DNA of 40,739 nucleotides from the sequence record KF669656.1. One strand, given 5' to 3'. The DNA is from Acinetobacter phage Petty. Made by a program: the position numbers and the translations under genes. Positions within the stretch are counted from its first letter, which is position 1. Every line of letters starts with the position of its first letter. This document shows positions 23,891-40,739 of this stretch, in pieces. The notes under the pieces are model-generated. The model had not been told where the DNA came from, searched no databases, and worked only from the letters and a program-made list of their open reading frames with translations.

Positions 23891-23895
23891 TCGTA

Positions 23896-23926
23896 TAGGC
23901 TACTCTCACGGGTAGCCTTTTTTTAG
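23896..23926 (+). terminator. Rho-independent terminator after the capsid gene
   Basis: AGGCTAC-tctcacgg-GTAGCCT stem-loop followed by TTTTTTT, 6 nt after the capsid stop. Confidence 0.8.
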
Positions 23927-23946
23927 TTTGTAAAGGAGATTATTAT

Positions 23947-24192: not shown

Positions 24193-24198
24193 TACATT

Positions 24199-24287
24199 GT
24201 GAACTCAGAAATGGGTTCACTTTAAGATAGTAGTTCCCTTGAATGAAGATAAGTTCAAGATTGCGCTACTATCTTAAAGTGAATCAC
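24199..24287 (+). promoter_or_regulatory. Compound inverted-repeat structure between the 81-aa ORF and tail tube gene A
   Basis: GTGAAC-10nt-GTTCAC (24199..24220), then a 13-bp perfect inverted repeat TTTAAGATAGTAG / CTACTATCTTAAA (24221..24233, 24266..24278) enclosing a nested CTTGAA/TTCAAG hairpin, then GTGAATCAC. Confidence 0.45.
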
Positions 24288-24305
24288 TTAATAAAGGAGG
24301 ATAGT

Positions 24306-24857: not shown

Positions 24858-24865
24858 GAGGTAAT

Positions 24866-27151
24866 ATGGCTTTATTTGAAGGTGTTTATAAATCCTTAAT
24901 TCAAGGCGTATCGCAACAGACTCCACAGGAACGTGAGGATGGTCAATTAGGTGAGCAGATCAATATGCTGTCTGACCCTGTTACTGGTTTACGCAGACGT
25001 GGTGGTATTAAGTATCATGCTTCTTTAGGTGTATCACCTAACTGTTATTTCAAAATCATCATTATTAATGGTGATGCTTATATTGTGGCAGTTAATACTA
25101 CTCTAGGTAAAGTGAGCGTTATGAACTTCAATACCAAGCGAGTAAGCACAATCAATAATGATTATTTTATAGCTCCGTCTAAACGTAGTATCCGTACTAC
25201 AGTATCACAAGATAAACTATTCATCGTGAATACAGACAAAGTTCCTACTAAGGATGTGACTGGTGTATCGACACGCCTTACACCTTATGGGAAAGGTTAC
25301 TTTAGTATTCGTGGTTCTGCGTTCTCTAAGAAGTTCTTTGTGACTTTAGATCACCCTAAGATTGGTCGTAAAACCTATGACGTGACTACATCTGATACTG
25401 AGGCTGCAAACGCATCACCTGAGTGGGTGGCTACTGAGTTGAAGAAAAAGATTGTAGCTGACATAGGTACTAATGCAGATGTTCACGTAAATGGTAATAC
25501 TGTAGAGATTATTATTCACGACCACATGAACACCTTGCTTACGGTCACTAGCCCAAGTACTGCTGGTGGTTATATGCTAGTGTCTGAAACTGCCCGTGTA
25601 CCAACACGTACAGAGTTACTTGGTCGTTTATACGTACTGGATGACTTTACTATGGCTGTGGGCAATACAGGTAACTCTGCGTACTATCGGTACTCTTTAG
25701 AAACAGGGCGGTGGTCTGAAACTTCTAAGTACGAACCGCCTTATAAGATTAAAGATGAACCACAAGTACTCTTGATCGAAGATGGTACTATTAAATTAGA
25801 ACCTATGGGTATTAAACAGCGTTCTGCTGGTGATGATGATAATAACCCAGAACCTCAGTTCTTGGGCTTTGGTATCACTGGTATCGGTTCATACCAATCA
25901 CGTATTGTACTTCTTAGTGGTGCTTATATTTATTTAAGTAAGACTGACACATACAACGAGTTCATGCGTACCTCAGTGACAGAAGTACTGGACAATGATG
26001 CGATTGAGATTTCAAGTGCGTCATTAACAAGTGCTCAGTTTGAATACTGCATTCCGTACAACAAGGATTTAGTTCTTGTGTCACAGAATCAGCAGGCAGT
26101 TATGCCAGCTAACAGTACTGTATTAACTCCACGTTCTGCGGTTATTTATCCAAGTACAACACTTGATTTATCTTTGGCAGTAGAACCTAGACCTGTAGGA
26201 CGCACAATGTACTATGCGTATCAGCGTGGTGTCGAGTACTACCAAGTGGGTGAGTTCATTCCAAACACGTATGCAGATGCACAGTACTACAGTCAGAACT
26301 TGACAGATCATATCCCTTTATATGCTAATGGTATTTGTACATCTATGAGTTCATCGAGTACTAACAACATGGTGGTATTTGGCTCAGATTCAGAAGAAGT
26401 ACTTGTTAATCAGTATATGTGGGTAGGTGAGGAACGTAGTCAAATGGCTTTCTATAAATGGAATTACCCTTACCGTGTAATGCACACTGACTTCATTAAT
26501 GAGTATCTCATTGCAATTATGGATGATGGCGTTGGTGGTGTTTATGTAGGTACACAGAACGTACAGTTAAACCAGTTAGATGATAAACCTATTCCATATT
26601 TAGATATGTACACGTACATTACAATTCAGAATGGTGTTGGTGATTTACCACGTATGTACATCGGCTCTAATTTTAAAGCAGTCATTTATGATGACCGTAA
26701 TCGACGACATAAGGAAGTAGCTTATACTGTAGATGAGAACACATCACAGATTAAGTGTCCTTACAATGGTGTAATTGCTATTGGTTTACCGTTCGAGAGT
26801 TCATTCACGCTAACGCCTCCTTTTATCCGTGATGATAATGGTCGAGTCATTGCAGGGACACGTACAACGATTCAACAGCTACGTATGACTTTCAAGAGTA
26901 CAGGTACATTCAAAGTGACCGTTAAGGATACTATGGGTACTGCGTATGACGGTGAAGGTATTACAGCTTATACATGGTCTGAGGCTGATCTCGGATATTC
27001 TTGGGTGAATAGTATCGGTGCAGTAGTTATCCCATGCCGTACACGCTTATCGAGTACAGATTGTACAGTTAAGACAGACGGTACTACTGACATGAACCTA
27101 GTGAGTACAGAGTATGTACTGCGACTAGCTAGTAAACGTAAGAGGTTATAA
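24866..27151 (+). CDS. Tail tubular protein B (T7 gp12-like)
   Basis: 761 aa; N-terminus MALFEGVYKSLIQGVSQQTPQER resembles T7 gp12 MALISQSIKNLKGGISQQP; follows tail tube gene A. Confidence 0.85.
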   Translation: MALFEGVYKSLIQGVSQQTPQEREDGQLGEQINMLSDPVTGLRRRGGIKYHASLGVSPNCYFKIIIINGDAYIVAVNTTLGKVSVMNFNTKRVSTINNDYFIAPSKRSIRTTVSQDKLFIVNTDKVPTKDVTGVSTRLTPYGKGYFSIRGSAFSKKFFVTLDHPKIGRKTYDVTTSDTEAANASPEWVATELKKKIVADIGTNADVHVNGNTVEIIIHDHMNTLLTVTSPSTAGGYMLVSETARVPTRTELLGRLYVLDDFTMAVGNTGNSAYYRYSLETGRWSETSKYEPPYKIKDEPQVLLIEDGTIKLEPMGIKQRSAGDDDNNPEPQFLGFGITGIGSYQSRIVLLSGAYIYLSKTDTYNEFMRTSVTEVLDNDAIEISSASLTSAQFEYCIPYNKDLVLVSQNQQAVMPANSTVLTPRSAVIYPSTTLDLSLAVEPRPVGRTMYYAYQRGVEYYQVGEFIPNTYADAQYYSQNLTDHIPLYANGICTSMSSSSTNNMVVFGSDSEEVLVNQYMWVGEERSQMAFYKWNYPYRVMHTDFINEYLIAIMDDGVGGVYVGTQNVQLNQLDDKPIPYLDMYTYITIQNGVGDLPRMYIGSNFKAVIYDDRNRRHKEVAYTVDENTSQIKCPYNGVIAIGLPFESSFTLTPPFIRDDNGRVIAGTRTTIQQLRMTFKSTGTFKVTVKDTMGTAYDGEGITAYTWSEADLGYSWVNSIGAVVIPCRTRLSSTDCTVKTDGTTDMNLVSTEYVLRLASKRKRL

Positions 27152-27153
27152 AC

Positions 27154-27855
27154 ATGGCTGATTATAGTAGAGAGTTCAGTTCTGGTTTACAAGGTGCTCA
27201 GATAGGTGGTCAGGTTGGTGGTGTTTGGGGTGCTGTGATCGGTGCTGGTATCGGTATCTTCATCGGTTCTGAGCAGCGTAAGGCTGAGGCACGTATGCGT
27301 GATGCGTATAATGCTCAAGTACTTCGTTATGCTGCACAAGACTTATTTGATATGCGTCGTGCACAGAACGTAGAGAACACACGAACAGCACAGGCACTTG
27401 CTACCTTACAAAACCAACGTAAGACACAGACAAGTGCTGCTACTGCTGCTCTAGGTGCTGCTGAGATTATGGGTGCATCTGGGGTGGCTTTACAACAAGC
27501 ACTTGACTTCCAGACAGAAGAAGCAATGGCTGATACAATCCTGAATTGGGAGATCGGTGTGGAGAACTATAATACTCAGCTTGAGAAAGGTTTTCAGCAA
27601 CGTGCTGCATCACTTGATCGTGGTAATGGTCAAAGACAGGTAGACGTTATGGGCAGTATCTTAAGTGGGGTTAGTTTATACAACAGCACATTCAAGGGTG
27701 AGGGTGGTAACATGATCAGCCAAGCTAAAGGTTGGTTCTCAGGTCAAGCAAGTACACCTAAAGCTATTGAGAAGTATGACCCACGTTGGAAAGATATGTC
27801 AGGTGGTTCAGGTAAAGGTGTCTTGAGTACACTAAACGCCAACACAAGTAACTAA
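27154..27855 (+). CDS. Internal virion protein A (gp14-like position)
   Basis: 233 aa; Gly-rich hydrophobic N-terminus GGQVGGVWGAVIGAGIGIFIG; first of three consecutive internal-core genes. Confidence 0.65.
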   Translation: MADYSREFSSGLQGAQIGGQVGGVWGAVIGAGIGIFIGSEQRKAEARMRDAYNAQVLRYAAQDLFDMRRAQNVENTRTAQALATLQNQRKTQTSAATAALGAAEIMGASGVALQQALDFQTEEAMADTILNWEIGVENYNTQLEKGFQQRAASLDRGNGQRQVDVMGSILSGVSLYNSTFKGEGGNMISQAKGWFSGQASTPKAIEKYDPRWKDMSGGSGKGVLSTLNANTSN

Positions 27856-27865
27856 GGAGGTTCTA

Positions 27866-30682
27866 ATGCGATCTATGGTAAATTCGCCTGCAATGGCTAA
27901 TGTTGAAATCTCTGGACTACAGCCGATTGAACGTCCACAACAGGAGAGTTTAGGGTCGTTCCTTGCGAGTATGCTACCAGAAGTAAATAAAGCTATCTCA
28001 ACTTATAAGGATGAGAATGCAGATTATTATATGGCACTAGGTCGTAATGACCGCCTTAACGATGTACACCGTGAGGTTAGTATCTTAGGTCGCCAAGCAT
28101 ACGAGCAAGGTTTAGAGTTCCAACATATTGTAAACAACCAAGCAATTCTTTCTGGCAAGTTCATGGAAGATGTAGATTCGATGGATGTGAACAACACAAC
28201 ACCAGAACAACTACAAGAACGTGCAAAGCAGTACTTAGATGAATCTGTGAATAACATTTACTCGGCTAAGACTCTTTCACCAGAAGCTAAGAAAATACTG
28301 TACGAAGCTCAGATCAAAGAGAACGCAACGTACATGAAAGAAATCAACACCAAGCAACAACAGATTGCGAATGATGTGACATACAACACGATGATGAACT
28401 TGTCATTGACGTTTGCTCGTGACTTGGGTACTAGCTCAGATACCCCTGCGGATACTGTCCTTAAAGTAGAAGCGTTTAAGACTAAGATGTTTAGTCTGGA
28501 GCGAGAGCTAGATAAGGCAGCAACCGCAGATGAGATTACCAAGCGTATTAATGCCCGTTTAGATACTATCTTCACCAAACAACTTGATACGTACAAAGCT
28601 GGTGGTACGGCTGAGGATATTAAGTCTATGGAGCAGTTAGTTAATCTTTCTGAGCACTTCATGGAAACAGATTTAGACTTAGCTGTGAAGTTACAGACTA
28701 AAGCTATGAAGTACATTGCCGAAGTTCAGGAGAATAATGATTCTCTTAAAGAACGTGAGGTTGCAGAGTTAGTTGCCGATTGGACACTTAACCCTGATAA
28801 GGTTACAGAAGAAATGGCTAAGGGTGCATTAGCAGAGATTTATGGTGATGGTTCTCTGAGTATTAAAGGTCAAACCTCTATGGGCAAGACTATCCTAAGT
28901 GCGTACACAACAGCAACGAATAAAGTTGTTAGTGGTGCAGAAATGCTAGACCCTTCGTTGTATGAGTCACCTTCTGCTGCTTTACGTGCAGGGTTCTCAG
29001 AAGATAAATGGGTAAGTGCTTCTCTTGAGAAGTTACTTCAACAGACTGGTGATGCTGCGGAGGCAGGGTATCAGTTAATCCTAAAAGGTAATGGTACAGA
29101 GTACTCTCCTGATGCAGTACGTAAAGGTTCTGAATCTATGTTCCGTACATTCAGTGGTTATGTCACTATGGGTGATGCAGAAGTTAAGAACGACCCTTAC
29201 GGTGCTAAACGTCAGCAAGATTTCGCCCGTGTACAAGCACTGTATCAACAGTACAAGAAGGATAACAACTCCAAAGCTCTTGATCTACTTAGTGGTGTTG
29301 ATGAGCGTTACCGTTCAGCCTTTGCTACTGTGCTTGAGAATGGAGGTTCTTTGGAGAGTGTACGTGAAGCATTGAAGTCACCTATTGCTACTACTGAGAA
29401 GTACAAGTTCGTAGATCAAGGTATTAACGGTGTTACTGCTGATACTATCGGTCTTAAGGATGAGTTACTTGGTGGTGCTGGTGGTACTCGTTTCAACAAC
29501 ATTTCAGATGCACTGAATGATACGTATGTTAGTTACGTCAAAGCTGCTATGACAGCCTCTCGTTCACATATTGTAATGGGTGTTGGTTCAGGTGACACTA
29601 ATGACGTGTTCTCTCGTTATCGTGATGCTGGTGGACTTATCAAGTCACCTAAAGGTTATAGTTCTGCTATCGTACCTATTCAAGCTGCTAAGAACTTAGC
29701 TAAGCTAAAGAACGATGGTGGTGCACCTATTGGTCTGGACTATATTGGTAAAGCCATTGACGCTAAACGTGAGGAGTACGCTAAGAAGTATGGTGTACGT
29801 CCAGATAACGTGATCGTTGTAAGTAATGACGTCGGTACTCAATTCCAATTCTTAGCTTATGATATTGAGAGTAATCTCTATGGTTTACGTAAAGGTAAAC
29901 CTGTGTTGAAGAATGGTAATGAAACAGGTATTAATGCTGGTGGTATGGAAACAACTGCTCGACTTATTGCAGATGCTAAGAAATACTATGCAGAAGATTC
30001 CCGTAGAAAGACCAATCCTACTAAACAGGAGTACGATGAACGTAAGAGTGGTGTACGTATTGGACGTGCTGTAGTTGTTCCTAAAGGTACTTCGAAAGGA
30101 GTGCCTGTTAGTATCAACTCATTGTACGCAGAAGGTATGGGTGGTAACAAAGACCTTGCTACTATGTGGGTTAATCACATGCAGAGTATGGAAGGCTTTA
30201 CTACTACAGGTACACAAGCTACGGATGCTAACACAAAGAACGTAAGTACCGTATGGGCTAATGGTATTACAGAAAAGAGTGCTACACCTAAAACCATTAA
30301 TATGCTAAAGGCTGCCAATGGTGACCCACAGCGTATCATGGATATTCAAGGTGGGTTTATGCGATCTTACTACCAAAAGATGAACATCAATAATGACTTA
30401 GCTAAAGCTGGTGTGCCTATTCCTACAGCGAGTATGTATCCAGCACAGTTCAAACAGTCTTTGATGCTTATTTACGATGCTGCTTGGCATGGTCATAATG
30501 GTGCTTTACACGGTACGAAAAATAACGGTGTTATTGCAGCTATGAATGCACCTAACTATGCACAAGGACTTGCAAGCTTAAAAGGCACTTCTGTGTACAA
30601 CCGCAGCAAAGCTAATCACAGACGTAATGTTTGGATGGAGAGTGCTCTTAAATCACACTTCAAAGCAACTGGTAAACTATAA
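27866..30682 (+). CDS. Internal virion protein B (gp15-like position)
   Basis: 938 aa; second core gene; AAGGAGG RBS. Confidence 0.65.
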   Translation: MRSMVNSPAMANVEISGLQPIERPQQESLGSFLASMLPEVNKAISTYKDENADYYMALGRNDRLNDVHREVSILGRQAYEQGLEFQHIVNNQAILSGKFMEDVDSMDVNNTTPEQLQERAKQYLDESVNNIYSAKTLSPEAKKILYEAQIKENATYMKEINTKQQQIANDVTYNTMMNLSLTFARDLGTSSDTPADTVLKVEAFKTKMFSLERELDKAATADEITKRINARLDTIFTKQLDTYKAGGTAEDIKSMEQLVNLSEHFMETDLDLAVKLQTKAMKYIAEVQENNDSLKEREVAELVADWTLNPDKVTEEMAKGALAEIYGDGSLSIKGQTSMGKTILSAYTTATNKVVSGAEMLDPSLYESPSAALRAGFSEDKWVSASLEKLLQQTGDAAEAGYQLILKGNGTEYSPDAVRKGSESMFRTFSGYVTMGDAEVKNDPYGAKRQQDFARVQALYQQYKKDNNSKALDLLSGVDERYRSAFATVLENGGSLESVREALKSPIATTEKYKFVDQGINGVTADTIGLKDELLGGAGGTRFNNISDALNDTYVSYVKAAMTASRSHIVMGVGSGDTNDVFSRYRDAGGLIKSPKGYSSAIVPIQAAKNLAKLKNDGGAPIGLDYIGKAIDAKREEYAKKYGVRPDNVIVVSNDVGTQFQFLAYDIESNLYGLRKGKPVLKNGNETGINAGGMETTARLIADAKKYYAEDSRRKTNPTKQEYDERKSGVRIGRAVVVPKGTSKGVPVSINSLYAEGMGGNKDLATMWVNHMQSMEGFTTTGTQATDANTKNVSTVWANGITEKSATPKTINMLKAANGDPQRIMDIQGGFMRSYYQKMNINNDLAKAGVPIPTASMYPAQFKQSLMLIYDAAWHGHNGALHGTKNNGVIAAMNAPNYAQGLASLKGTSVYNRSKANHRRNVWMESALKSHFKATGKL

Positions 30683-30693
30683 GGAGTTAGATA

Positions 30694-33600
30694 ATGGTAG
30701 ACAATACTAAACCTGTGGCTATGCCTCTAGGACAACCAATCAAAGGTATTCCAGTAAACGTAGCACACGACCCAAACGTGCCTGTTTCAGAGCGATCTAC
30801 AGGTGAAGCTCCTGTTCTATCATTAGTTGAACCTTCTGAAACGCCTGCTCCTGTCCCTAAGACAGAGGCAGAGCAGGCACTTGATTTAAAGATTGAAGAA
30901 GAACGAGCATCTGTATTGGCATCTATTGGTGCTGGTATGGGTGGTCTAGGTATTGATATATACCGTAGTGCTCGTAGTGCATTAATCTATGAGCGTGACC
31001 CTAATTTTAATCACCAACCATTAAGTGATGAGTTCTTCACTCAGGCTGGTGCGGGTACGCCAGAGGAAGTTAAGTACTTGGCAGATGCTAAGAACGATGC
31101 TGACTTTGAAGATCGTACCAAGTATATTTTAGACAACCGTATGCGTCGTCAAGCTATGGCGGATAACCCTGTGTCTGGTCTTGTAGGTTCTTTAGTGGAC
31201 GTAGATATTGCTGTAGGTGGTGCTAAGATTCGTAATGTTGCTAATGCTGCTTCTACAGCAGGGCGTTTAGGTACTCGTGCTGGTGCTGGTGCTATTGGTG
31301 CTGGTGCTATGGTAGGTATCCAAGCTGCTCAAGGAGATAACACCTTACGCACAGAAGGTGAACAGTTAGGTGATGTATTCACTATGGGTATTTCCCGTTC
31401 ACTTGCTCCATTGGCTAAAGGGCAACCTCAAGTAATTGCTGGTGCTGGTGCACAAGGAGCACAAGGCGTTCCTACCACTGTACAACAGAGCGTAAACAGT
31501 GCTGCTAACCAAGTGCAACAACAGATTCAGACTTATACACCGCCAACAGGTACACCTACACAACAGGTTGCTAAGAACAAGTACATTGCTGCTTTACAAA
31601 GTACTGCTGATTACCTTCGTTATATTACTAATGGAGATACAACTACAGTAGTGAATAAGCTGTTAAGTAACCCAGCCTTCAACAATGGCGACGATGTTGT
31701 GAGTCTACAACAGGTGTACCTGAACAACTATGGGCAGCGTTTAAATGCGTTCTCCGATGCCTTCAAGGATGCTATCGCTGCTACTGGTACACGCAGTAAC
31801 CCTATTTCACGTATTACAGGACGGTATGCTCGTGCTGCGGAAGCTGTAGGGTCTGATTTCCAAGTAGCGTTACAACGTGTGGATGCAGATGTACTTGACT
31901 ACTACAAGACCAATGGTGTACTGCCTAATGATGTAGAGTTCAATAAGATGCTTGCTGCCCATAACAATGAGCCACATATTAACTCTTTGATTAAGGCTTA
32001 TATGGATTCTGGTATTGCTGAGAAAGCGTATGATGATATGCTGAGTTCTCCGTTGGCTATCCGAGAGGAGATCGACCCAGTTACAGGTAATACAATCCAA
32101 ACGAACATTATGGATGACATTGTACGTCGTCCTACGTATATGCGTTTACAGCATGATTATGACCGTATGGCACATACTGTAGAAGTTGCTAAGAAAGCTA
32201 CTTGGGATGAAATGGCTACGTTTATCGGTGACCAGATCACTAAGATGTATCCTGATCTATTAAATCCTAAAGGTGCTGGTAAGGCATTTAAACTCTCAGT
32301 TAAGCAAGTAGGTGATCACTATTTACAAACACAACGTCAAGCCTCTCGTGGTTTAAGTGACGTTTCTGCTGTGGGTATGAGTGTAGAGGATATGGCTAAG
32401 TTACTCACTGAGTCTGGTCAAGTTACTCAAAAGGAAGCTGTTAGCCTAGCATCTGAGATTTACAAACGCTCTCACGATAAAGGTACATCTATGCCTAAAC
32501 ACTTACGTAGACGTATTGATTGGGACTGGAATGCTACCATGCGTACTGCATCTGGTCATAAGTTAAGTATGCGTGACTTCGTGAACTCTAACGTGATGGG
32601 TAACTTAGAAGGTTATACCACGAGTCTTGGACACCGTTTAGGTCTTGCTGGTTATGGTCTTAAGAGTGAGGCTGACTTAGATAACCTATTAGAAAGTTAT
32701 TACTCTAAACTTCCTGCTGATGTGTCACCACAAGAAGCCAGACAGTTTATGAAGAACACTAAGGATACTTTGCTAGGTCGTCCTATTGAGAACAACCCTG
32801 TTCCAGAAGGTGTACGATCTGCACAAGCCGTTGCTGATATGTTCTTACTTGCTAACTCAGGTTTATTAGGTATGGTGGATGTAGCTTCTCAATTACAAAA
32901 AGTAGGTGTTATTCGTTCAATCCCTGCTATACGTAAAGGTTTAAAAGCTGTGTTCAAAAGCATGTCAAAAATAAGTAAGCAAGATGCTAAGGACTTAGAG
33001 GACATCTTAACATTACGTATGCTTCAAGGTTCTCAATGGAAGAACTTTGTACCACGTTATGCAGATAACTTCGAGGTATCTGGTGGTATCCATGAGGCTG
33101 CTCAGTACTATGGACAGAGTGCTCGTTTTATGAACTTATCAGAATCCCTAAAGCGTTTCCAAGTTGGTATCCTAGCTTCTGTGTACGCACGGAACTTGAA
33201 ACGTGCCATGAAAGGTGACGCTAAAGAGTTAGCCTTTATGAAGGATAAACTCAAGATAGACGGGACACTTATAAGAGAGATAGAACAAGAGTACGCTAAA
33301 CATGGTACAAACATTGATAATTGGAGTAATGCTGTACGGGTGAAGTACGAACAGAAGATTTACCACGATGCTGATAACTTAGCGATGTCTGTACATAACG
33401 GTGAAGTGCCTGCAATCCTAGAGCATTCTGCTGTAGGTCGTATCATCTTCCCGTACATGCGTTATACATTCGCTATGCAGAACAAGGTGCTTCGTAGAAC
33501 GTACAACCGTGATGGTGCTACAGGTTTAGCCATGTTACTTGCTTTCCAGATTCCTACTGCAATGCTGGTGGCAGCAGCAATTAACGTGCGTAAAGAAAAA

Positions 33601-33861
33601 GAACCTGACCATGACTTAGCTCTAGGAACTATCAAGAGTATGACGGCTTTCGGTTCATTGAACTACCCGTTTGAGATTGCTATGAGTGGTTTGGATGGGG
33701 GTGGTGTTACAGCGTTAGCCCCATTTGGTAAAACTTATAACTTCGGTAAGGAGTTATTCACTGGTGGCGAAGATGGTGAGGTGTCACCGTACAAACTCAT
33801 CAAGAACTCACCGATTAATGCTACACCATTAGATTATTTAGCTTTAGCTTTGGAGGATTAG
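30694..33861 (+). CDS. Internal virion protein C (gp16-like position, ejection-channel protein)
   Basis: 1055 aa; largest core protein, directly ahead of the tail fibre gene. No lytic-transglycosylase signature noted by eye. Confidence 0.65.
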   Translation: MVDNTKPVAMPLGQPIKGIPVNVAHDPNVPVSERSTGEAPVLSLVEPSETPAPVPKTEAEQALDLKIEEERASVLASIGAGMGGLGIDIYRSARSALIYERDPNFNHQPLSDEFFTQAGAGTPEEVKYLADAKNDADFEDRTKYILDNRMRRQAMADNPVSGLVGSLVDVDIAVGGAKIRNVANAASTAGRLGTRAGAGAIGAGAMVGIQAAQGDNTLRTEGEQLGDVFTMGISRSLAPLAKGQPQVIAGAGAQGAQGVPTTVQQSVNSAANQVQQQIQTYTPPTGTPTQQVAKNKYIAALQSTADYLRYITNGDTTTVVNKLLSNPAFNNGDDVVSLQQVYLNNYGQRLNAFSDAFKDAIAATGTRSNPISRITGRYARAAEAVGSDFQVALQRVDADVLDYYKTNGVLPNDVEFNKMLAAHNNEPHINSLIKAYMDSGIAEKAYDDMLSSPLAIREEIDPVTGNTIQTNIMDDIVRRPTYMRLQHDYDRMAHTVEVAKKATWDEMATFIGDQITKMYPDLLNPKGAGKAFKLSVKQVGDHYLQTQRQASRGLSDVSAVGMSVEDMAKLLTESGQVTQKEAVSLASEIYKRSHDKGTSMPKHLRRRIDWDWNATMRTASGHKLSMRDFVNSNVMGNLEGYTTSLGHRLGLAGYGLKSEADLDNLLESYYSKLPADVSPQEARQFMKNTKDTLLGRPIENNPVPEGVRSAQAVADMFLLANSGLLGMVDVASQLQKVGVIRSIPAIRKGLKAVFKSMSKISKQDAKDLEDILTLRMLQGSQWKNFVPRYADNFEVSGGIHEAAQYYGQSARFMNLSESLKRFQVGILASVYARNLKRAMKGDAKELAFMKDKLKIDGTLIREIEQEYAKHGTNIDNWSNAVRVKYEQKIYHDADNLAMSVHNGEVPAILEHSAVGRIIFPYMRYTFAMQNKVLRRTYNRDGATGLAMLLAFQIPTAMLVAAAINVRKEKEPDHDLALGTIKSMTAFGSLNYPFEIAMSGLDGGGVTALAPFGKTYNFGKELFTGGEDGEVSPYKLIKNSPINATPLDYLALALED

Positions 33862-33862
33862 T

Positions 33863-36619
33863 ATGGCTTATGTAGAAAAGGAAATGAACCTCAAACGGTC
33901 ATTCGTAGAGTACAAGGTAACACAACCTACTACAAACTTTGCACTCCCGTTTGAGTTCGTTGAGGCAGAGCAGAACCTTCGGGTTCGCCTCAACGGTATT
34001 GATATTGAGGATTTAGGTTACTCGTTCTTAGTGACGAATAATATAACTGTCCAAGTGACACCAGCAATCCCTCACGGTACTTTAAGTATTTCACGGGAAA
34101 CCGATATTGATAAGAACCTGTATAAGTTCACGGCTGGTGCGTTATTTGAAGCACGTACTATGGATAAGAACTTCGAGCAGATTCGACATTCACAGCAAGA
34201 GGTACGGGATGGGTTCGAGAAGTTATCTGATGCTACTTACACGATCATTGATACCTTACAAGATGTAGGTCAAGCAGCACAGGATGCTGCTGACGCTGCG
34301 GAGCAAGCTGCTCAAGCAGCTAATGATGCAGCAGCGCAAGTTAATGATAAGGTATCACAGGTAGAGATTGATTACATCCACGAGAACGGTGCAGCACTAC
34401 CTCACAAAGATGGAATTGATTATGAAGAAAACGCTGTTGTTGTAAAAGGTGGGGTTTTGCAGCAGTGGAAGGGTGGGGCTTGGGTTAATGTTGGCGAACA
34501 AGAAGTTAAAAAATATCTTCTTGTAGCTGGTGTCGATGAATCTGAATTGGATGATGACTACAATTATCTCATGCAGCGACTAGCACAAATTGCAGTGGAT
34601 AAGGGCTGGGATGCTTCTTTCGTTGTTGATGGAAATATAAACCAACATGAGCGCAATACAGGGGTTAAATCCTTAAATCAACTGCGCCTAACAAAACCAT
34701 CTAAGAAGGGGGATCGTGTATTTCTTGCTTCAGTAAATGAAGCTCAAAACGAGGGTGGTGGGGAGTTTATCGCAACTCAAAAAGCAGGCTTAGTTGATGA
34801 TGGTGGTTTGGTTATTGCATCGCCTGATCCGATGCTGTTTTGGGTGCGTGTACATTATGATACCGTGACACCTGAAATGTTCGGTGCAGTTGGTGATAAT
34901 ACCGCAGACGATGCGATCCCATTACAAAAAACAATGTCATGCGGTCGGGCTATTGAGTTCGACAAAGGGCGAAAGTATAGATCAAGTAAACCTATCGAAA
35001 TGTTTACAGGTCAAAAAATTAAAGGTAATGGCGCAAAGATTACCAAGTACACTGCGAGTAAAACTGGTATCACTGGTCGCACAGACCCAAGTGGAAATCC
35101 ATATGATTATGACCAAGACTGCGCTGTTGTTTTCGGGGCATGGTATGGTTGGTATAGTTACATCGATATTGAAAATCTGACGATTCAGAAAGAAGCTGTA
35201 CTTGGGGCAGATGTCGGTAAAGTCTTTTTTGCACCATATATCAGCATGTCTTCATTAAAGAGCGTTGTTGTTAAGGGCGGTGAGTACGGTTTTTATGGCG
35301 AAGACTTGTGGATGCTCAATTGGACTCGATGCGAAGCATATTCTAAATGCGGTTTTTATGTGGGTACAGGCACAAGCAACCAGTTCAATACTTGTTGGTC
35401 AAAAGAAACTAAGGAAGGTTATTCTGCATTCCGACTTCATAACTTAACGTATTCCTCTTTGATCAACTGCTGTGCAGAGCATGTCGGTGAGGATGGTGCG
35501 CCTGCTGAAGCTGCCTACCATATTACAAACTCTGACTTAACCATGATAGGTTGCGGAATTGAGAATATACACGCATATAATTTAATTCGCATAGGATACT
35601 CGTGGGTAACGATTGAAAATCCTAGTTTCATTTACGGCATTAACAATAAATATCGTCACGGGACATATACAGGTTTAATAGACGTATCCAGTTCTGATAG
35701 TGTCGTGACGTTACGTGGTGGGCATATTACCGCTACAAACTCAGGTACATTCGCTGATGCGGTTCGAGTGGGTGGTGGTACTTTTAATTATGAGACACCT
35801 CTTTGGAATAACGTAGGTTTCCCTGATGATAGTAGTGGGTTTAAAATACGCATATCTAATTATGCTGCAATTATGAATTTGACGGGTTTCGACGGTCGAA
35901 AATATACTTTCAATGGTCGTAGTAAAAAATGGGATATTCACACAAAAGCAAAGTTTTTAAATGGTTTACAAGCTAACCTGCTCGGTACAACTCATTTAAA
36001 CAACATTCGTAAAGACTTCTATATTGGAACACAAAATAAGGGTAATAATGGGTCTGTAGCAAACGGGTATCCATTTGATGGATTTGGTGGTACAGTTCTA
36101 AACTTTTCAGACGAAGACGCCGCACAATATTCTAACACTGCACAACTTGCCTTATCTGCCGTATCCAATAGAGTCTTTTTTAGGAGGGCAGCATACGAGC
36201 AAGCTCTTGGGTCTTGGTTCGAGTTTAGAACATCAGCCAACACTACTGTGGACGCTAATGGATTTGTCAAAAACGCATCGCCGATTGTTAAGCTCTTTGC
36301 TGACCGTATTGAGCTTAATGATGATGCAGAAAAGCAAAATATCGAGTTTGAAAAACTAGGCGTTGGTGATTACTTGATTAAAGGCTCTAGTGGATTTTCT
36401 GATAACGGTTGGTACATCGAAACCCCTAAAGATGCAAATGGAAATGTGCTGTTTTCGGTCATCTATGCAACACTAGAAAATGGCGACATTTCGGTAAAAA
36501 CTTATCAGAAAAAGTTTGATCTTGAAACAGCCTCTATTGTTGCTGATCTTGAGCAGCCTGTGGACATTACGGTAGGACGTTGGATTGACTTGCGACTAAA
36601 TGAGGTGAGTGCAAACTAG
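33863..36619 (+). CDS. Tail fibre / tailspike: T7 gp17-like N-terminal anchor plus C-terminal beta-helix depolymerase-like domain
   Basis: 918 aa. The N-terminal ~170 aa have gp17-like anchor character. From about 34400 onward codon usage shifts sharply (ggg, gcg, cga, aaa, ttt, caa) and the protein is rich in G/N/S/T repeats typical of pectate-lyase-like tailspikes. Confidence 0.8.
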   Translation: MAYVEKEMNLKRSFVEYKVTQPTTNFALPFEFVEAEQNLRVRLNGIDIEDLGYSFLVTNNITVQVTPAIPHGTLSISRETDIDKNLYKFTAGALFEARTMDKNFEQIRHSQQEVRDGFEKLSDATYTIIDTLQDVGQAAQDAADAAEQAAQAANDAAAQVNDKVSQVEIDYIHENGAALPHKDGIDYEENAVVVKGGVLQQWKGGAWVNVGEQEVKKYLLVAGVDESELDDDYNYLMQRLAQIAVDKGWDASFVVDGNINQHERNTGVKSLNQLRLTKPSKKGDRVFLASVNEAQNEGGGEFIATQKAGLVDDGGLVIASPDPMLFWVRVHYDTVTPEMFGAVGDNTADDAIPLQKTMSCGRAIEFDKGRKYRSSKPIEMFTGQKIKGNGAKITKYTASKTGITGRTDPSGNPYDYDQDCAVVFGAWYGWYSYIDIENLTIQKEAVLGADVGKVFFAPYISMSSLKSVVVKGGEYGFYGEDLWMLNWTRCEAYSKCGFYVGTGTSNQFNTCWSKETKEGYSAFRLHNLTYSSLINCCAEHVGEDGAPAEAAYHITNSDLTMIGCGIENIHAYNLIRIGYSWVTIENPSFIYGINNKYRHGTYTGLIDVSSSDSVVTLRGGHITATNSGTFADAVRVGGGTFNYETPLWNNVGFPDDSSGFKIRISNYAAIMNLTGFDGRKYTFNGRSKKWDIHTKAKFLNGLQANLLGTTHLNNIRKDFYIGTQNKGNNGSVANGYPFDGFGGTVLNFSDEDAAQYSNTAQLALSAVSNRVFFRRAAYEQALGSWFEFRTSANTTVDANGFVKNASPIVKLFADRIELNDDAEKQNIEFEKLGVGDYLIKGSSGFSDNGWYIETPKDANGNVLFSVIYATLENGDISVKTYQKKFDLETASIVADLEQPVDITVGRWIDLRLNEVSAN

Positions 36620-36642
36620 TCGCTCAGTAAAACCTTTTTAAA

Positions 36643-36680
36643 CCCTGATCTTTAATTAGATCAGGGGGTTTTTTTTTTTA
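36643..36680 (+). terminator. Strong rho-independent terminator after the tailspike gene
   Basis: CCCTGATC-tttaatta-GATCAGGG followed by GG and T11. Confidence 0.85.
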
Positions 36681-36780
36681 TTACCAAAATTTAGGGCGCA
36701 AGTGAATGCGTCAATTCTATTGATGCACTGAAAGGTATCATCACCCAACTTTAAACACAGCAAACCACAAGGAGAATTAC

Positions 36781-37134
36781 ATGAACATCGTAGATTGGTT
36801 CTATGCAGTTCTGATCTACGTATGGTCAGAATTAGATAAAGTCGCTTTAAGCGCAAGTACCTCAGCTATTGTAGTTGCGGTACTCCGTATGCGTAAGCAT
36901 GGTAAGATTCTTTGGAGCGAAGCACTACTATGTGGTGTATTCGCTACCATTGCTATTGTTGGTTTACAGTTTATTCTGGCTGTCTTAGGGTTACCGTCAG
37001 ATGGTTGGGTTAATGCTGTAGTCGATGGTGGTAGTACAGTCATTGGTGCTGGTATCGGTTGGTATGGTACTGATCGTACTGTTGAGTTCTTAGAAAACAA
37101 AGTAGGAGGTCGTGATGAGCAAGACACTGAGTGA
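36781..37134 (+). CDS. Holin (117 aa)
   Basis: AAGGAGA RBS. Hydrophobic segments WFYAVLIYVW, LLCGVFATIAIVGLQFILAVLGL and TVIGAGIGWYG; charged C-terminus; immediately upstream of and overlapping the endolysin gene. Confidence 0.7.
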   Translation: MNIVDWFYAVLIYVWSELDKVALSASTSAIVVAVLRMRKHGKILWSEALLCGVFATIAIVGLQFILAVLGLPSDGWVNAVVDGGSTVIGAGIGWYGTDRTVEFLENKVGGRDEQDTE

Positions 37135-37702
37135 GTACGGACAACGTGAGTTAGCTGATCTTTATGGTATTCCACTGGCAGCTATGAAAGCTATCGTTGA
37201 AGTGGAGTGTAAAGGTTCTGGTTTTAATTCCGACGGCACTCCTGTTATTCTGTATGAACGTCATAAGTTTTATGAAGGACTCCGAGCTATTAATTGGATT
37301 ACTAAGGCTCGTGAGTGGTCACAGAAGTATCCTGATCTGTGTAATCCATACGCAGGCGGTTACGGTAAGTACAGTGAGCAACATAAGAAGTTAGATCGTG
37401 CTGCTGAACTCAATCGAACTGTTGCCCTAGAATCCTGTTCATGGGGTCTTGGGCAAGTCATGGGTTATCACTGGAAGTCTTTAGGTTACACTAATCTACA
37501 AGAGTTCATTAATTGTATGTATAAGTCAGAGTACTGCCAGCTAGATGCTATGTGTCGTTTTATCGAAGTGAACAAGCTATTACCTTTCATTCGTAAGAAA
37601 GATTGGGCTGGTTTTGCTATGCGATACAATGGTGGTGGTTATCGTAAGAACCAGTATGATACTAAACTCTCTGCTGCGTATAAGAAATTCGGAGGTGTCT
37701 AA
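37115..37702 (+). CDS. Endolysin (N-acetylmuramidase/lysozyme-like)
   Basis: 195 aa; AGGAGG RBS 5 nt before ATG 37115. Sits in the lysis position after the holin; globular with no TM segment. The enzymatic class is not verified. Confidence 0.7.
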   Translation: MSKTLSEYGQRELADLYGIPLAAMKAIVEVECKGSGFNSDGTPVILYERHKFYEGLRAINWITKAREWSQKYPDLCNPYAGGYGKYSEQHKKLDRAAELNRTVALESCSWGLGQVMGYHWKSLGYTNLQEFINCMYKSEYCQLDAMCRFIEVNKLLPFIRKKDWAGFAMRYNGGGYRKNQYDTKLSAAYKKFGGV

Positions 37703-38025
37703 TGAGTCGTAAGAAAAGTGCAAGTGTAGCGGAATTAGAAGCCCTACACGCTGCGACTGCTCGTTACCTTAAAGGTCGCTTAGAAGATAGTACACGTCAA
37801 TCAGAAGATGAGGACGATTTTGTATTGCCTCTAGCCACAGGCGAGGTTGCGAACATTATCGCATTCTTGAAACACAACAATATTTCTGCTGCTCCTGATG
37901 CAGAAGAAGTATCAGAACTCAAACAAGAGTTCGCTAATGATTTAGAAGCACAACGTATTGCTAAAGCCGAAGGATTGCTCCGTGCATCTGATGAGGATTT
38001 AGAACGTGCTGCGTGGTTATCTTAA
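37702..38025 (+). CDS. Terminase small subunit (gp18-like)
   Basis: 107 aa, acidic and helical; ATG overlaps the endolysin TAA; directly precedes the large terminase gene. Confidence 0.6.
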   Translation: MSRKKSASVAELEALHAATARYLKGRLEDSTRQSEDEDDFVLPLATGEVANIIAFLKHNNISAAPDAEEVSELKQEFANDLEAQRIAKAEGLLRASDEDLERAAWLS

Positions 38026-38034
38026 GGAGGGTTT

Positions 38035-39978
38035 ATGACCTATATTACCGAACAGGTTGCTCGTCGTTTGAACATGCTCTCGACTGAGTGTAAGAAATGG
38101 GCAAACGCACCACATGAAATTCCTAGTGAGAAACGGGAAGAACTGAGCATGATGTTCGGTAGTACCTTTAAAGACTTCCGTGCCTTCGCTGAATTAGGTA
38201 TGAAGTACTTAGGTTTTGATCTATCGAATATGCAGGCTGATATAGCCCACTTCATGCAGAAAGGTCGTGCTAAGCGTATGGTACAGGCTCAGCGTGGTCA
38301 AGCGAAATCTACGCTTGCTGCTTTGTACTGTATCTGGTTACTCCTACGTGACCCTACGTGTCGTGTACTTATTGTGTCTGGTGGTGAGAAGCAGGCATCT
38401 GACGTGGCACTTATGATCATTCGTATGATTATGAATTGGTCGCTTCTGTGCTGGTTGCGTCCTGATATTGCTAAAGGTGATAGAAGTTCTGTTTCTGCCT
38501 TCGACGTACACCATTCACTTAAGGGTATTGATAAGTCGGCATCTGTATCATGCGTAGGTATCACTGCGAACTTACAGGGTATGCGAGCAGACTTCATTCT
38601 CGCTGATGATATTGAAACACAACGTAACTCTATGACTCAAACTGAGCGAGAGAAGTTACAGTTACTTATTAAAGAATTTGCTGCGATCTGTATTAGTGGT
38701 GAGATCATGTACTTAGGTACACCTCAGACTAAAGACAGTATCTATCGCCTCCTCCCTGCTCGTGGTTACGACGTTAGAGTTTGGACAGGGCGTTACCCTA
38801 CCAATGAAGAACTTGAGCGTTATGGGGCTGGTGTGACGATTGCGCCTATGATTATGCAGGCACTCTTAGAAAATCCAGCTTTACAGACAGGTGGTGGTAT
38901 CGAAGGTAATCGTGGACAACCTACAGATGATGGACACATCAATGAGGATATTCTACAAGAGAAGGAACTTGAGTACGGTGAGGAAGGTTTCTCATTACAG
39001 TACATGCTCGATACAACGCTCTCAGATGCTCTTAGAACGAAGATTAAGTTAAGTGATACCTTAGTACTAGCGGTAGACAATCACAGCGTTCCTGAGCGAT
39101 TACACTGGCAAGCAGAGCCATCTAAACTGTACAAGGGTAGTTCTCCTAACGTGCAGGACTTTAGAATGTATCATGCTAGTGGTGTATCAGATACTTTTGT
39201 TCCGTTTGAACATAAGGTAATGACACTTGACCCTGCTGGTGCTGGTGGTGATGAATTGTCATTCGCTGCTGGTGGTGCTACGAACTCTTACATCTATCTG
39301 TTATCAGTAGGTGGGTTCATCGGTGGTACTACTCAGAAGAACATTGAAGCAGTTATCGAGAAGATGCTGTTGCTTGATATTCATGTACTAGACATCGAGA
39401 AGAACATGGGTCATGGTACAGTTCTATCATTATTCGTAGAACGCCTAGAAGCTCTTAAGAACCTGTGTAAGCAACAATCGAAGGACATCCAATGGTTATG
39501 TACCAGTACAGGTCTATCGTTGCGTGAGCTTGAATCTAAGCTGAATCAGATAGGTCTTACAGAGTACTACTCGACTGGTCAGAAGGAACGTCGTATTATC
39601 GACACGATCTCTCCATTAACTCGTCGTCATAAGTTAGTAGTAACTGTACAGGCGATTGAGGATGATTGGGAGTACTGTAAAGGACATAACCCAGAGAAGC
39701 GATTACAGTTCAGTGCGTTTCAACAAATGGGTAATATCACGTATGATCGCAACAGCTTAGTCCATGATGACCGAGCAGACTGTGTTCAACGTGTAGTAGA
39801 GGTACTTGCTCCATTCTTGAGTAAGGATGAGGAGAAGGCTCACCAAGAGCGACAGGAGGCTGTTATAGCAGAGTTCTTAAAGAACCCTATGGGATACAGC
39901 CAGAATGTGTTAGCACAGCTTAATCGTAAAGGTATTAAGCGTAATAACTATAAACGTCGGGGAAGTATCCGTCGTTAA
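38035..39978 (+). CDS. Terminase large subunit (T7 gp19-like)
   Basis: 647 aa; Walker A-like QAQRGQAKST and Walker B ILADDIE; AAGGAGG RBS; penultimate large gene, as in T7. Confidence 0.85.
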   Translation: MTYITEQVARRLNMLSTECKKWANAPHEIPSEKREELSMMFGSTFKDFRAFAELGMKYLGFDLSNMQADIAHFMQKGRAKRMVQAQRGQAKSTLAALYCIWLLLRDPTCRVLIVSGGEKQASDVALMIIRMIMNWSLLCWLRPDIAKGDRSSVSAFDVHHSLKGIDKSASVSCVGITANLQGMRADFILADDIETQRNSMTQTEREKLQLLIKEFAAICISGEIMYLGTPQTKDSIYRLLPARGYDVRVWTGRYPTNEELERYGAGVTIAPMIMQALLENPALQTGGGIEGNRGQPTDDGHINEDILQEKELEYGEEGFSLQYMLDTTLSDALRTKIKLSDTLVLAVDNHSVPERLHWQAEPSKLYKGSSPNVQDFRMYHASGVSDTFVPFEHKVMTLDPAGAGGDELSFAAGGATNSYIYLLSVGGFIGGTTQKNIEAVIEKMLLLDIHVLDIEKNMGHGTVLSLFVERLEALKNLCKQQSKDIQWLCTSTGLSLRELESKLNQIGLTEYYSTGQKERRIIDTISPLTRRHKLVVTVQAIEDDWEYCKGHNPEKRLQFSAFQQMGNITYDRNSLVHDDRADCVQRVVEVLAPFLSKDEEKAHQERQEAVIAEFLKNPMGYSQNVLAQLNRKGIKRNNYKRRGSIRR

Positions 39979-40005
39979 TTCAATTAAATTCAACAGGAGA
40001 TTAAT

Positions 40006-40197
40006 ATGAGTTTACTAGATAAAGTTAAAGCTGTCCGTGTACAAGATGCTGAGCAAGTACTAAGTACCGCTAAAATCGTCGTACAGAGCGCACAGGCGTT
40101 AAATAGCACTGGCACGTACAAACATAAGGAGAAGGTCGATAAAGCTCTGTATGGAGCATCTGTGACTCTCTCAGTGCTAGAGCGAGTGCTACGATGA
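40006..40197 (+). CDS. Hypothetical protein (63 aa)
   Basis: ATG at 40006 with CAGGAGA RBS; right-end small gene. Confidence 0.65.
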   Translation: MSLLDKVKAVRVQDAEQVLSTAKIVVQSAQALNSTGTYKHKEKVDKALYGASVTLSVLERVLR

Positions 40198-40364
40198 GTT
40201 ATAGTCCTAGAGTTAAAGTAGAAGTTCAACGTGAGGTTCACGAAGCCTTACGTGAGCTTAAGCAAAGAGGAGAATCTTTCAATGATGTGATTGCACGTTT
40301 ACTGGAATCCCAGAAGTGTGTTCAGGAGTGTATTCAGAAGTGTTCAGGTAATTGTTCAGAGTAG
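40194..40364 (+). CDS. Small ribbon-helix-helix-like protein (56 aa)
   Basis: ATG overlaps the upstream stop (ATGA). The N-terminus SYSPRVKVEVQREVHEALRELKQRGESFNDVIARLLE has the RHH beta-strand, helix, G-x-S turn and second helix. The Cys-rich C-terminal third overlaps the GTTCAG repeat array. Confidence 0.45.
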   Translation: MSYSPRVKVEVQREVHEALRELKQRGESFNDVIARLLESQKCVQECIQKCSGNCSE

Positions 40365-40391
40365 TTCAGAAGTGTTCAGTAGAGTGTTCAG
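40311..40391 (+). repeat. Array of about 7 short degenerate repeats (AGTGTTCAGG-type, 9 to 13 bp periodicity) adjacent to the right DTR
   Basis: TTCAG recurs at 40322, 40334, 40343, 40355, 40365, 40374 and 40387 with similar flanks; the array ends about 40 nt before the DTR boundary at 40432. Confidence 0.7.
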
Positions 40392-40739
40392 GATTCCTCT
40401 TGGGAGTACTATGTCACAACCTAAAATTTGGTATAGTTTTCTGAGAGGGTATCCCCACCCTGCGCCGTCCAGCCTTCCCCCATAGGGTTCTTGCTTAGGA
40501 TGACTTAGTCTATGATCAAGACTTTATAGTATCCTAAGCTATTTATTATCAAGACTGTTTCATCTTTTAATCTCCTTTCGTGGTAACTGATTGCAAGTTT
40601 ATACAGTCCTTTCGATAGTGTCAAGCATTTATTGATAAATTTATTCAACTATTTTTTAAATCGGGTACTAAGTCTATGATTATCAATAGATTATAGTTAT
40701 ATCTTTATAGATTTATATATAGATTTATAGGTTTATAGG

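Follow-up and report, generated by a model that had tools for sequence, protein, structure and literature searches.

The tailspike of Acinetobacter phage Petty very probably carries a swapped-in capsule-degrading cassette

Introduction

Tailspikes of Beijerinckvirinae and Obolenskvirus phages combine a conserved N-terminal particle-binding part with a hypervariable capsule-degrading part that has moved horizontally (PMC11126041; PMC10888812), and the trees of their N- and C-termini are incongruent (PMC11126041; Evseev et al. 2024, PMC10888812). One of them, APK116 gp43, is a K116-specific hydrolytic glycosidase and not a lyase (Timoshina et al. 2024, PMC11126041). That Petty resembles APK116 has already been published, and with it a predicted K116 specificity for Petty (PMC11126041; PMC10888812); that specificity was put forward as a prediction (Timoshina et al. 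2024, PMC11126041).

Within the Acinetobacter baumannii-calcoaceticus complex, the range of capsule types open to a therapeutic phage is set by its tailspike cassette, and cassette swapping is the usual route to host-range change in such phages. For the Petty depolymerase, Dpo1, Hernandez-Morales and colleagues are said to have described EPS depolymerase activity in 2018, apparently without mapping breakpoints or composition; Dpo1 reportedly released reducing ends, which the authors took as hydrolase activity. In the review passages that deal with Dpo1, degradation of host EPS is presented as experimentally demonstrated, with EPS viscosity lowered and biofilm partly removed. Earlier publications already cover the enzyme activity, the similarity to the APK116 K116-depolymerase and the general rule that such modules are exchanged, so the essentials of our finding confirm known biology. 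The additions are modest: breakpoints placed at nucleotide level with two sister genomes, a pair of conserved joints, and a composition argument for a temperate-phage pool. The enzyme activity is taken from the literature; what we establish ourselves is that the gene is a mosaic, where its breakpoints lie, how the encoded protein folds and that the composition is anomalous.

Results

The window analyzed is the whole Petty genome (40,739 nt), in whose ORF list the tailspike gene is one frame of 918 codons for amino acids. Its product is Petty gp39/Dpo1 (YP_009006536; 100% identity across 918 aa) and matches PHROG 3918 (tail fiber; E = 4e-172). The gene order runs from an internal virion protein (30694-33861) through the tailspike, holin (36781) and muramidase (37112) to the small and large terminases. 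As is typical of the Friunavirus/Beijerinckvirinae type, a single tailspike gene ends the structural module, directly upstream of the holin, endolysin and terminase genes. APK116 shares this gene order, as does L004, one of two metagenomic Petty-like genomes compared below. The holin ORF (36781-37134) matched PF05106 at 23.5 bits, slightly below the cut-off of 23.8. The features of the locus are as follows.

33863..36619, plus strand: tailspike gene (gp39, Dpo1), ORF of 918 aa, PHROG 3918
33863..34237, plus strand: N-terminal particle-binding anchor, T7 gp17-like, aa 1-125, clonal backbone (5JS4 match)
34238..34372, plus strand: Ala-rich helical stalk, aa 126-170, QDAADAAEQAAQAANDAAAQ (weak Alanine_zipper match)
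34373..34633, plus strand: 'neck' joint motif, aa 171-257, YIHENGAALP...VVVKGGVLQQWKGGAWVNV...YNYLMQRLAQIAVDKGWDASFVVDG; proposed 5' recombination joint (cross-phage conservation)
34655..34852, plus strand: small beta domain before the helix, aa ~265-330, like the CBA120 TSP2 pre-helix domain (phmmer, pLDDT)
34859..36229, plus strand: right-handed parallel beta-helix capsule depolymerase core and distal beta region, aa 333-789 (6EU4 match, pLDDT)
36239..36601, plus strand: C-terminal domain PF25670 (Phage_tail_C_2), aa 793-913 (Pfam)
36643..36679, plus strand: intrinsic-terminator-like hairpin and T-run past the tailspike stop, 9-bp stem; proposed 3' cassette joint
36751..36780, plus strand: conserved leader of the holin gene with its ribosome-binding region (backbone match to L004 by blastn restarts at 36751)

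The anchor is of the Friunavirus/Beijerinckvirinae type: aa 7-176 matched the N-terminus of the phiAB6 tailspike (5JS4) by phmmer (E = 2.1e-37), and PF03906 gave a borderline match (23.1 bits, slightly below the cut-off of 25.2). Among seven metagenomic tailspikes that differ in their C-termini, the anchor is 80-97% identical, and Petty-type anchors begin to diverge, in a first tier, past aa ~120-125.

To place the breakpoints at nucleotide level, we compared Petty with L004 and L012, which were found through contigs encoding matches to the N-terminus; a search of viral contigs for related loci through the upstream 1055-aa virion protein yielded no relatives. Both genomes share the flanks of the Petty gene and its first ~180-220 codons at 91-95% nucleotide identity (~95% over the anchor), and the rest of the gene is unrelated. 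L004 matched at 91.5% over 23891-34495 and at 94.2% over 36751-40499; between these two points blastn returned no match, and identity per 60-nt window was 20-60% with many gaps. L012 matched at 93% over 32821-34523 and at 89% from 36641 on. Among the three Petty-like genomes there are thus three different cassettes. A sequence-only reading of this DNA had put the junction between a conserved anchor and a foreign C-terminal part at about 34400, and identity among the three genomes is indeed ~95% until ~34400, where the clonal frame stops. It is ~80% across all three over 34403-34495, and homology is lost at 34495 in L004 and at 34523 in L012; the cassette extends from ~34400-34523 to 36640-36750. 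The mosaic proposed in that reading therefore stands, but its two-part form does not, the gene being multi-tiered.

The same reading held that codon choice switches from about 34400 to the gene end. We scored native codon usage conditioned on the amino-acid sequence, using 2000 simulations. Codons 211-918 scored 0.037, against 0.269 ± 0.030 in the simulations (z = −7.8, 0/2000), so synonymous choice does depart from the backbone; backbone genes 200 codons or longer ranged from z = −3.0 to +3.6, and codons 1-210 gave z = −1.8. Chi-square comparison of codons 211-918 with all other genes bore out most of the individual codons that had been named. GGG rose from 7% to 17% as GGT fell from 76% to 54% (p = 9e-4), CGA from 13% to 27% as CGT fell from 69% to 31% (p = 0.003), AAA from 42% to 67% (p = 0.002) and TTT from 35% to 64% (p = 0.001). 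In the same comparison TAT also increased (42% to 71%, p = 7e-4). GCG, on the other hand, did not rise (10% to 7%), the alanine shift going to GCA, and the rise claimed for CAA was not significant (p = 0.11). The preferences ascribed to the rest of the genome were as described (CGT 69%, AAG 58%, GGT 76%, GTA 40%).

Homopolymers changed as well. Both A-rich strings quoted in the reading are present, at 34508 and 34924, and the density of A5+ runs is 4.24 per kb over 34496-36619 vs. 0.47 per kb elsewhere, a roughly ninefold difference that places 9 of the 27 runs inside 5.2% of the genome (binomial p = 5.6e-6). Profiles of GC (0.41 vs. 0.42), GC3 and GC skew were flat across the gene, and the shift was visible only in synonymous-codon scores; because GC3 is essentially unchanged, a GC3 plot is uninformative for the codon switch. 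G, N, S and T were enriched as claimed (30.9% vs. 23.5% in the backbone), but values of 30-31% are also seen in two other tail genes, and the enrichment is therefore not distinctive.

The codon deviation is uneven along the cassette: scores for codons 600-750 are close to the genome mean, and the most extreme outliers fall in codons 700-900; nowhere in the genome is the native codon score lower than in the stretch encoding the C-terminal domain (z down to −3.7). A model-free search for a single change-point found the strongest heterogeneity at codon 745, away from the junction; as this reflects the odd C-terminal domain, the search was not used to set the boundary. Between codons ~131 and ~225, Petty-like usage gave way to Friunavirus-like usage in a log-likelihood ratio.

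The module lies behind at least five different anchors at 55-80% amino-acid identity, on podovirus, myovirus and prophage backgrounds, in keeping with the proposed exchange of a receptor-binding module. The part expected to recognize and degrade capsule is highly similar to the K116-specific glycosidases APK116 gp43 and Brutus gp46. APK116 gp43, the nearest relative that has been characterized, is 69.7% identical over 87% of the Petty protein length, rising to 82-88% over aa 450-780, and the Brutus and BP10 tailspikes are 64.5-65% identical over aa 265-916, their homology beginning at aa 265 of the Petty protein. By analogy, the Petty depolymerase most likely cleaves a K116-type capsule. In architecture APK116 gp43 is like Petty gp39, with a beta-helix between a gp17-like anchor and a C-terminal PF25670 domain. 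Its anchor, however, is just ~38-63% identical to that of Petty, it does not have the Petty neck insert (aa ~180-265), and at the start of the beta-helix (aa 330-390) it is 37% identical, vs. 85-97% for metagenomic relatives. The APK116 module is also a codon and homopolymer outlier in its own genome, with a codon score of 0.139 vs. 0.39 for the adjoining gene and A5+ runs at 4.34 per kb vs. 0.60 for the whole APK116 genome.

The structure was predicted with AlphaFold2 from an alignment restricted to homologs of the cassette, in which two acidic residues of the helix, D419 and E567, are conserved almost without exception. A 107-sequence alignment was dropped for this purpose, as it mixed non-homologous C-termini over 2744 columns. 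For aa 166-918 the mean pLDDT was 82 and the strand pattern was that of a beta-helix, in agreement with the depolymerase-like beta-helix that had been anticipated. Confidence was low in the neck, 83-91 in the small beta domain and 90-98 over most of the length of the helix. The best Foldseek matches were all phage tailspike depolymerases, 6EU4 (AS12 gp42) being first (E = 1.9e-28) and 24QI (Belisarius gp86) reaching E = 7e-18. Single-sequence phmmer aligned 6EU4 over aa 327-788 (E = 1.7e-26), and a family profile recovered it at E = 3.6e-99. These two closest solved structures align with the beta-helix core over aa ~327-788 at an identity of just ~18-30% and have other capsule specificities; their alignment stops at aa ~790 and so leaves the Petty PF25670 domain uncovered. 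The small beta domain matched 5W6P/6W4Q over aa 269-390 (E ~4e-9). The C-terminal domain belongs to Phage_tail_C_2 (PF25670; E = 5.9e-30, 104.5 bits vs. a cut-off of 27) and matched the SU10 fiber 7Z47 (E = 4e-11). Petty was modeled as a monomer; by analogy with 6EU4, which has three chains, its tailspike is probably homotrimeric.

Discussion

Petty gp39 is, with high confidence, a capsule-degrading tailspike whose receptor-binding two-thirds is a swapped-in cassette. The first ~180 residues are the T7 gp17-like anchor and helical stalk of the Pettyvirus backbone, presumably fixing a trimer to the tail. The small beta domain, the beta-helix and the PF25670 domain would then bind capsular polysaccharide and cleave it, most likely by hydrolysis, so that the virion could tunnel through the capsule. 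If binding and cleavage reside in the cassette part, that part would set the infectable capsule types. The receptor-binding part, from ~34400-34520 to 36640-36750, is very probably a portable cassette, and the same module is equally foreign in the Friunavirus APK116.

The cassette was probably gained through recombination at two joints, both of them conserved: the neck motif on the 5' side and the terminator hairpin with the holin leader on the 3' side. The neck motif is 64-82% identical at the amino-acid level in many otherwise unrelated fiber and spike proteins, and 84% identical at the nucleotide level to a myovirus-like contig (L013). The hairpin, with its 9-bp stem (CCCTGATCT/AGATCAGGG) followed by a T run, is common to L008, L012 and L013 at 85-96%. 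Both joints are potential points for cassette swaps, whether natural or engineered.

The composition of the cassette, with weak host-like codon bias and many A/T homopolymers, resembles that of temperate Acinetobacter phages, unlike that of T7-like backbones, and we infer that the cassette came from a temperate-phage pool. In prophage and myovirus settings the module has 3-5 A5+ runs per kb. A wider reading, which we put forward tentatively and would not yet favor over its negation, treats the K116-type depolymerase as a defined plug-in cassette in circulation among phages of Acinetobacter. It would be bounded by two portable joints, common to podoviruses, myoviruses and prophages at 80-96% nucleotide identity, would be native to temperate phages, and would have entered at least two virulent T7-like lineages, Pettyvirus and Friunavirus, independently. 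If so, the joints could be engineered to redirect Acinetobacter phages to other hosts. As part of that reading, and with the same reserve, the T7-like backbones of Pettyvirus and Friunavirus may be strongly depleted in A5+/T5+ runs outside the cassette.

We considered whether the codon anomaly could instead be a product of gene-specific constraints, such as translational selection being weak or slow codons helping the long beta-helix to fold during translation, with no trace of transfer. Part of the low codon adaptation may be gene-specific and carry no signature of transfer, because low scores are also seen in the first 210 codons, which are clonal (0.137 vs. 0.31-0.35 for neighboring late genes), and in the unrelated L004 cassette (0.118); the C-terminus of the APK116 tailspike is likewise low within the APK116 genome. 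As an account of the whole anomaly, however, constraint is improbable: sister-genome homology collapses exactly where the composition changes, the jump in A5+/T5+ runs is absent from the L004 cassette (0.59 per kb), and in a P2-like prophage the module scores no differently from the N-terminus of the gene that carries it (0.247 and 0.255, respectively). It is less easy to set aside the idea that the Petty cassette is the ancestral Pettyvirus one, the L004 and L012 lineages having swapped theirs, so that any exchange in the Petty lineage would be old. Three cassettes in three sister genomes make the direction of change unreadable from these genomes, no donor is nearer than 77% at the nucleotide level, and no amelioration is evident in either direction (scored with the Petty codon model, the Petty copy of the module gives 0.055 and the APK116 copy 0.087). 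Nevertheless, we regard this history as rather unlikely. The Petty cassette is the compositional outlier, whereas that of L004 has backbone-like homopolymers and a higher codon score, and the neck is equally divergent (~80%) in all three genomes, which suggests that each cassette was replaced independently.

The description of the enzyme as pectate-lyase-type holds at the level of fold, the parallel beta-helix being common to pectate lyases, but fares less well beyond it. That the enzyme is a polysaccharide lyase acting by beta-elimination, in the manner of pectate lyases, seems to us very improbable. To the eye, its N-terminal cap motif (FGAVGDNTADD) resembles that of Pectate_lyase_3, a few distant relatives carry PF12708, and some Foldseek matches are lyases (7W1C, 9OZL), with E just 1e-4 to 1e-6. 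Against these, hmmscan of Pfam-A at E <= 0.1 returned no pectate-lyase family, PF12708 included; APK116 gp43 and all other characterized Friunavirus tailspikes are reported to be hydrolytic glycosidases; and the reducing ends reportedly released by Dpo1 point to a hydrolase.

Returning to the preferred reading of a swapped-in cassette, we next considered its source. The sequence-only reading had called the exchange recent, which is not demonstrable, as the nearest homologs are just 77% identical at the nucleotide level and 80% at the amino-acid level. No near-identical donor was found, leaving both the timing and the direction of transfer unfixed. By megablast against the phage collection, the gene matched APK116 alone, restricted to gene nucleotides 1234-2685. 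None of the codon models compared (Petty, APK116, P2-like prophage, podovirus prophage and host) fitted the cassette; the best, that of a prophage, reached just 0.114, and we therefore claim no specific donor. The relative that matches best varies along the cassette, which argues for a reticulate history rather than one clean transfer. The C-terminal domain has 65-69% identity with tail proteins from siphoviruses and prophages of Acinetobacter, and these proteins match Petty gp39 nowhere else.

Composition of the tailspike gene

The 40,739-bp Petty genome is T7-like (GC 0.422), and all its genes lie on the + strand. Its ends (1–308 and 40432–40739) form perfect direct repeats of 308 bp (100% identity), as fits a complete linear T7-like genome. 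Its tailspike gene is:

33863–36619 (+): gp39/Dpo1 tailspike ORF, 918 aa, matching the 'tail fiber protein' of Acinetobacter phage Petty at 100% identity

Dpo1 has already been characterised experimentally: passages in reviews describe a Petty tailspike with a gp17-like N-terminal domain, which when purified degraded the EPS of the host A. nosocomialis AU0783 and removed ~20% of biofilm.

A sequence-only reading had placed a codon switch at about 34400, and comparison of gp39 with the 33 other + strand Petty ORFs confirmed it. From backbone to gp39 codons 211–918, the shares of GGT (76% to 54%) and CGT (69% to 31%) fall, while those of AAA (42% to 67%), TTT (35% to 64%) and TAT (42% to 71%) rise (p = 7e-4 to 3e-3 each). 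GCG, also said to rise, instead drops from 10% to 7%, and the change in CAA is not significant. The codon score, which measures synonymous choice conditional on amino-acid sequence, is 0.037 for codons 211–918, vs 0.269 ± 0.030 simulated (z = −7.8); z is −1.8 for codons 1–210 and −3.0 to +3.6 for backbone genes of at least 200 codons. All five 100-codon sliding windows inside codons 701–900 score below every one of 319 backbone windows. GC and GC3 hardly change across gp39, so that a GC3 plot, proposed as a check, is nearly flat. The low score may be partly gene-specific; the clonal anchor (0.137) and the cassette of the metagenomic sister genome L004 (0.118) also lie below neighbouring late genes (0.31–0.35).

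Two A-rich strings quoted in that reading are present, at 34508 and 34924. A5+ runs are ninefold denser in 34496–36619 than elsewhere in Petty (4.24 vs 0.47 per kb; binomial p = 5.6e-6), and T5+ runs elevenfold. The reported G/N/S/T richness is real (30.9% in the cassette vs 23.5% in the backbone) but is shared by other tail proteins. More generally, A5+/T5+ runs are strongly depleted in T7-like Acinetobacter phage backbones (0.3–0.6 per kb in Petty, the Friunavirus APK116 and L004); loci from temperate phages and myoviruses that share these hosts carry 3–5 per kb. Seven of the 18 A5+ runs in the Petty backbone sit within the first 2 kb.

Sister genomes carry unrelated cassettes

Some metagenomic proteins match gp39 in the N-terminus only (80–87% identity), and two of their contigs are Petty sister genomes. 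The 36-kb L004 matches Petty at 91.5% of nucleotides over 23891–34495 and 94.2% over 36751–40499, with no detectable homology in between; L012 matches at 93% over 32821–34523 and 89% from 36641 on. Thus, each of the three Petty-like genomes fills this slot with a different, unrelated cassette. Their pairwise identity is ~95% up to ~34400 and ~80% in all pairs across 34403–34495, where an unrelated myovirus-like phage (L013) is likewise ~80% identical to each. The clonal frame therefore ends at ~34400, coinciding with the codon switch.

Exchange of the module by horizontal transfer, as first proposed, is thus supported, but as a multi-tier mosaic rather than a two-part design. The sequences do not allow the exchange to be called 'recent': even the nearest homologues reach only 77% nucleotide and 80% amino-acid identity, and we saw no sign of amelioration of its composition. 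The swap is recent in a relative sense only, in that sisters with 6–9% backbone difference hold different cassettes, and it could have run in either direction.

Proposed joints at both ends of the cassette

At the upstream joint lies a 'neck' motif (aa 171–257; YIHENGAALP...VVVKGGVLQQWKGGAWVNV...YNYLMQRLAQIAVDKGWDASFVVDG), found at 64–82% amino-acid identity behind many different N-termini and at 84% nucleotide identity in L013. The breakpoints of relatives fall within or adjoining it:

aa ~120–125: five metagenomic anchors
aa 206–212: P2-like and other fibre proteins
aa 211: L004
aa 221–232: L012
aa 241–248: several spike proteins
aa 265: Obolenskvirus

The downstream joint includes:

36643–36666: strong terminator-like hairpin 3' of the gp39 stop codon, with a T run right after it

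This hairpin also occurs in L012, in L013 and in L008; the L008 contig, whose cassette is the closest, has homology from 34599 to 36696. L004 homology restarts no earlier than 36751, inside the holin leader. On this reading, homologous recombination would swap cassettes at the neck motif on one side and at the terminator or the holin leader on the other. Directly downstream of the cassette, the first ~45–60 nt of the holin gene (36782–36840) are 88–93% identical between Petty and Friunaviruses (APK116, L006), vs ~65–70% for their backbones elsewhere; this conserved island may act as a recombination anchor.

A beta-helix fold and a probable hydrolase

Pfam assigned PF25670 (Phage_tail_C_2) to aa 793–913 of gp39 and found no pectate-lyase family. 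PDB searches with the single sequence matched successive parts:

aa 7–176: phiAB6 tailspike (5JS4)
aa 269–390: CBA120 TSP2 (5W6P/6W4Q)
aa 327–788: AS12 gp42 (6EU4)
aa 791–911: SU10 fibre (7Z47)

A family profile matched 6EU4 (E = 3.6e-99) and Belisarius gp86 (24QI; 3.4e-89). In an AlphaFold2 model of aa 166–918 (mean pLDDT 82, low in the neck only), pLDDT reaches 90–98 along an extended series of short strands resembling a parallel beta-helix, and nearly all Foldseek matches in the PDB are phage tailspike depolymerases (6EU4, 24QI, CBA120 TSP2, K2-2 TSP, AM24, Depo32). The predicted beta-helix is thus borne out. APK116 gp43, the closest characterised enzyme, is a glycosidase that hydrolyses capsule to K-unit oligomers, as are other characterised Friunavirus tailspikes (PMC11126041). 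Because these relatives hydrolyse capsule, 'pectate-lyase-type' is right for the fold but probably wrong for the chemistry; by analogy, gp39 is probably a hydrolase. Since gp43 is also the closest homologue of Dpo1, K116 specificity has been predicted for Petty (PMC11126041).

Spread and possible origin of the module

Modular kinship to gp43 and general N/C exchange among such tailspikes are already published (PMC11126041, PMC10888812); what we add is modest: mapped breakpoints, a proposed pair of joints and an argument from composition. Versions of the capsule-degrading part with 55–80% amino-acid identity turn up in many contexts:

Friunaviruses: APK116, plus a Friunavirus-like contig deposited with a Salmonella assembly
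Obolenskvirus myoviruses: BP10, Brutus
P2-like prophage (L010): A. nosocomialis and A. baumannii genomes
Integrase-bearing prophage adjoining cysS: A. baumannii
Alcaligenes phage Piluca
Several unplaced contigs

Piluca (L003 2518–4494) and the A. baumannii prophage (L011 10519–12495) are 81.7% identical over 1983 nt and have the module alone in common, their flanks being unrelated. Piluca is annotated as infecting Alcaligenes faecalis, so an Acinetobacter-type depolymerase cassette is present in hosts of another bacterial order. The best relative also changes along the Petty cassette:

Neck: P0110, P0117
aa 241–330: P0049, P0059
aa 300–540: P0003, P0004
aa 510–600: prophage proteins
aa 600–750: APK116
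C-terminal tip: P0042

The module family is therefore itself reticulate.

In APK116 the module is as foreign as in Petty (A5+ 4.34 per kb vs 0.60 for the entire genome; codon score 0.139 vs 0.39 for the adjoining gene). In contrast, it fits its surroundings in the P2-like prophage (codon score 0.247 vs 0.255; A5+ 4.7 vs 5.0 per kb). This tentatively suggests that the module is native to temperate phages and that virulent T7-like lineages acquired it from that pool, with caution called for because every codon model tried fits the cassette poorly (best score 0.114).

A Friunavirus-like contig of 27–41 kb with the K116-type tailspike P0002 (L007 = GCA_028163725.1, DAMYVY010000017.1; L006) is deposited as Salmonella enterica, a label that likely reflects contamination or a mis-assigned read set rather than a Salmonella phage.

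Other features of the genome

The lysis region (36781–38025) encodes a holin, which scores just below the cut-off of PF05106, and a muramidase (PF11860); the small terminase gene comes directly after them. Between these we found no spanin-like gene among separate ORFs of at least 60 aa, in agreement with the lysis cassette of Petty, reportedly published as 'spanin-less'. An early 137-aa ORF (3104–3517, +) without a Pfam match is a composition outlier (GC 0.478, GC3 0.544) with the lowest codon score of any Petty gene (0.012), and may be either a further foreign gene or no real gene. Several 100-codon windows of a 513-aa ORF (20382–21923) are also among the lowest backbone codon scores, down to −0.02.
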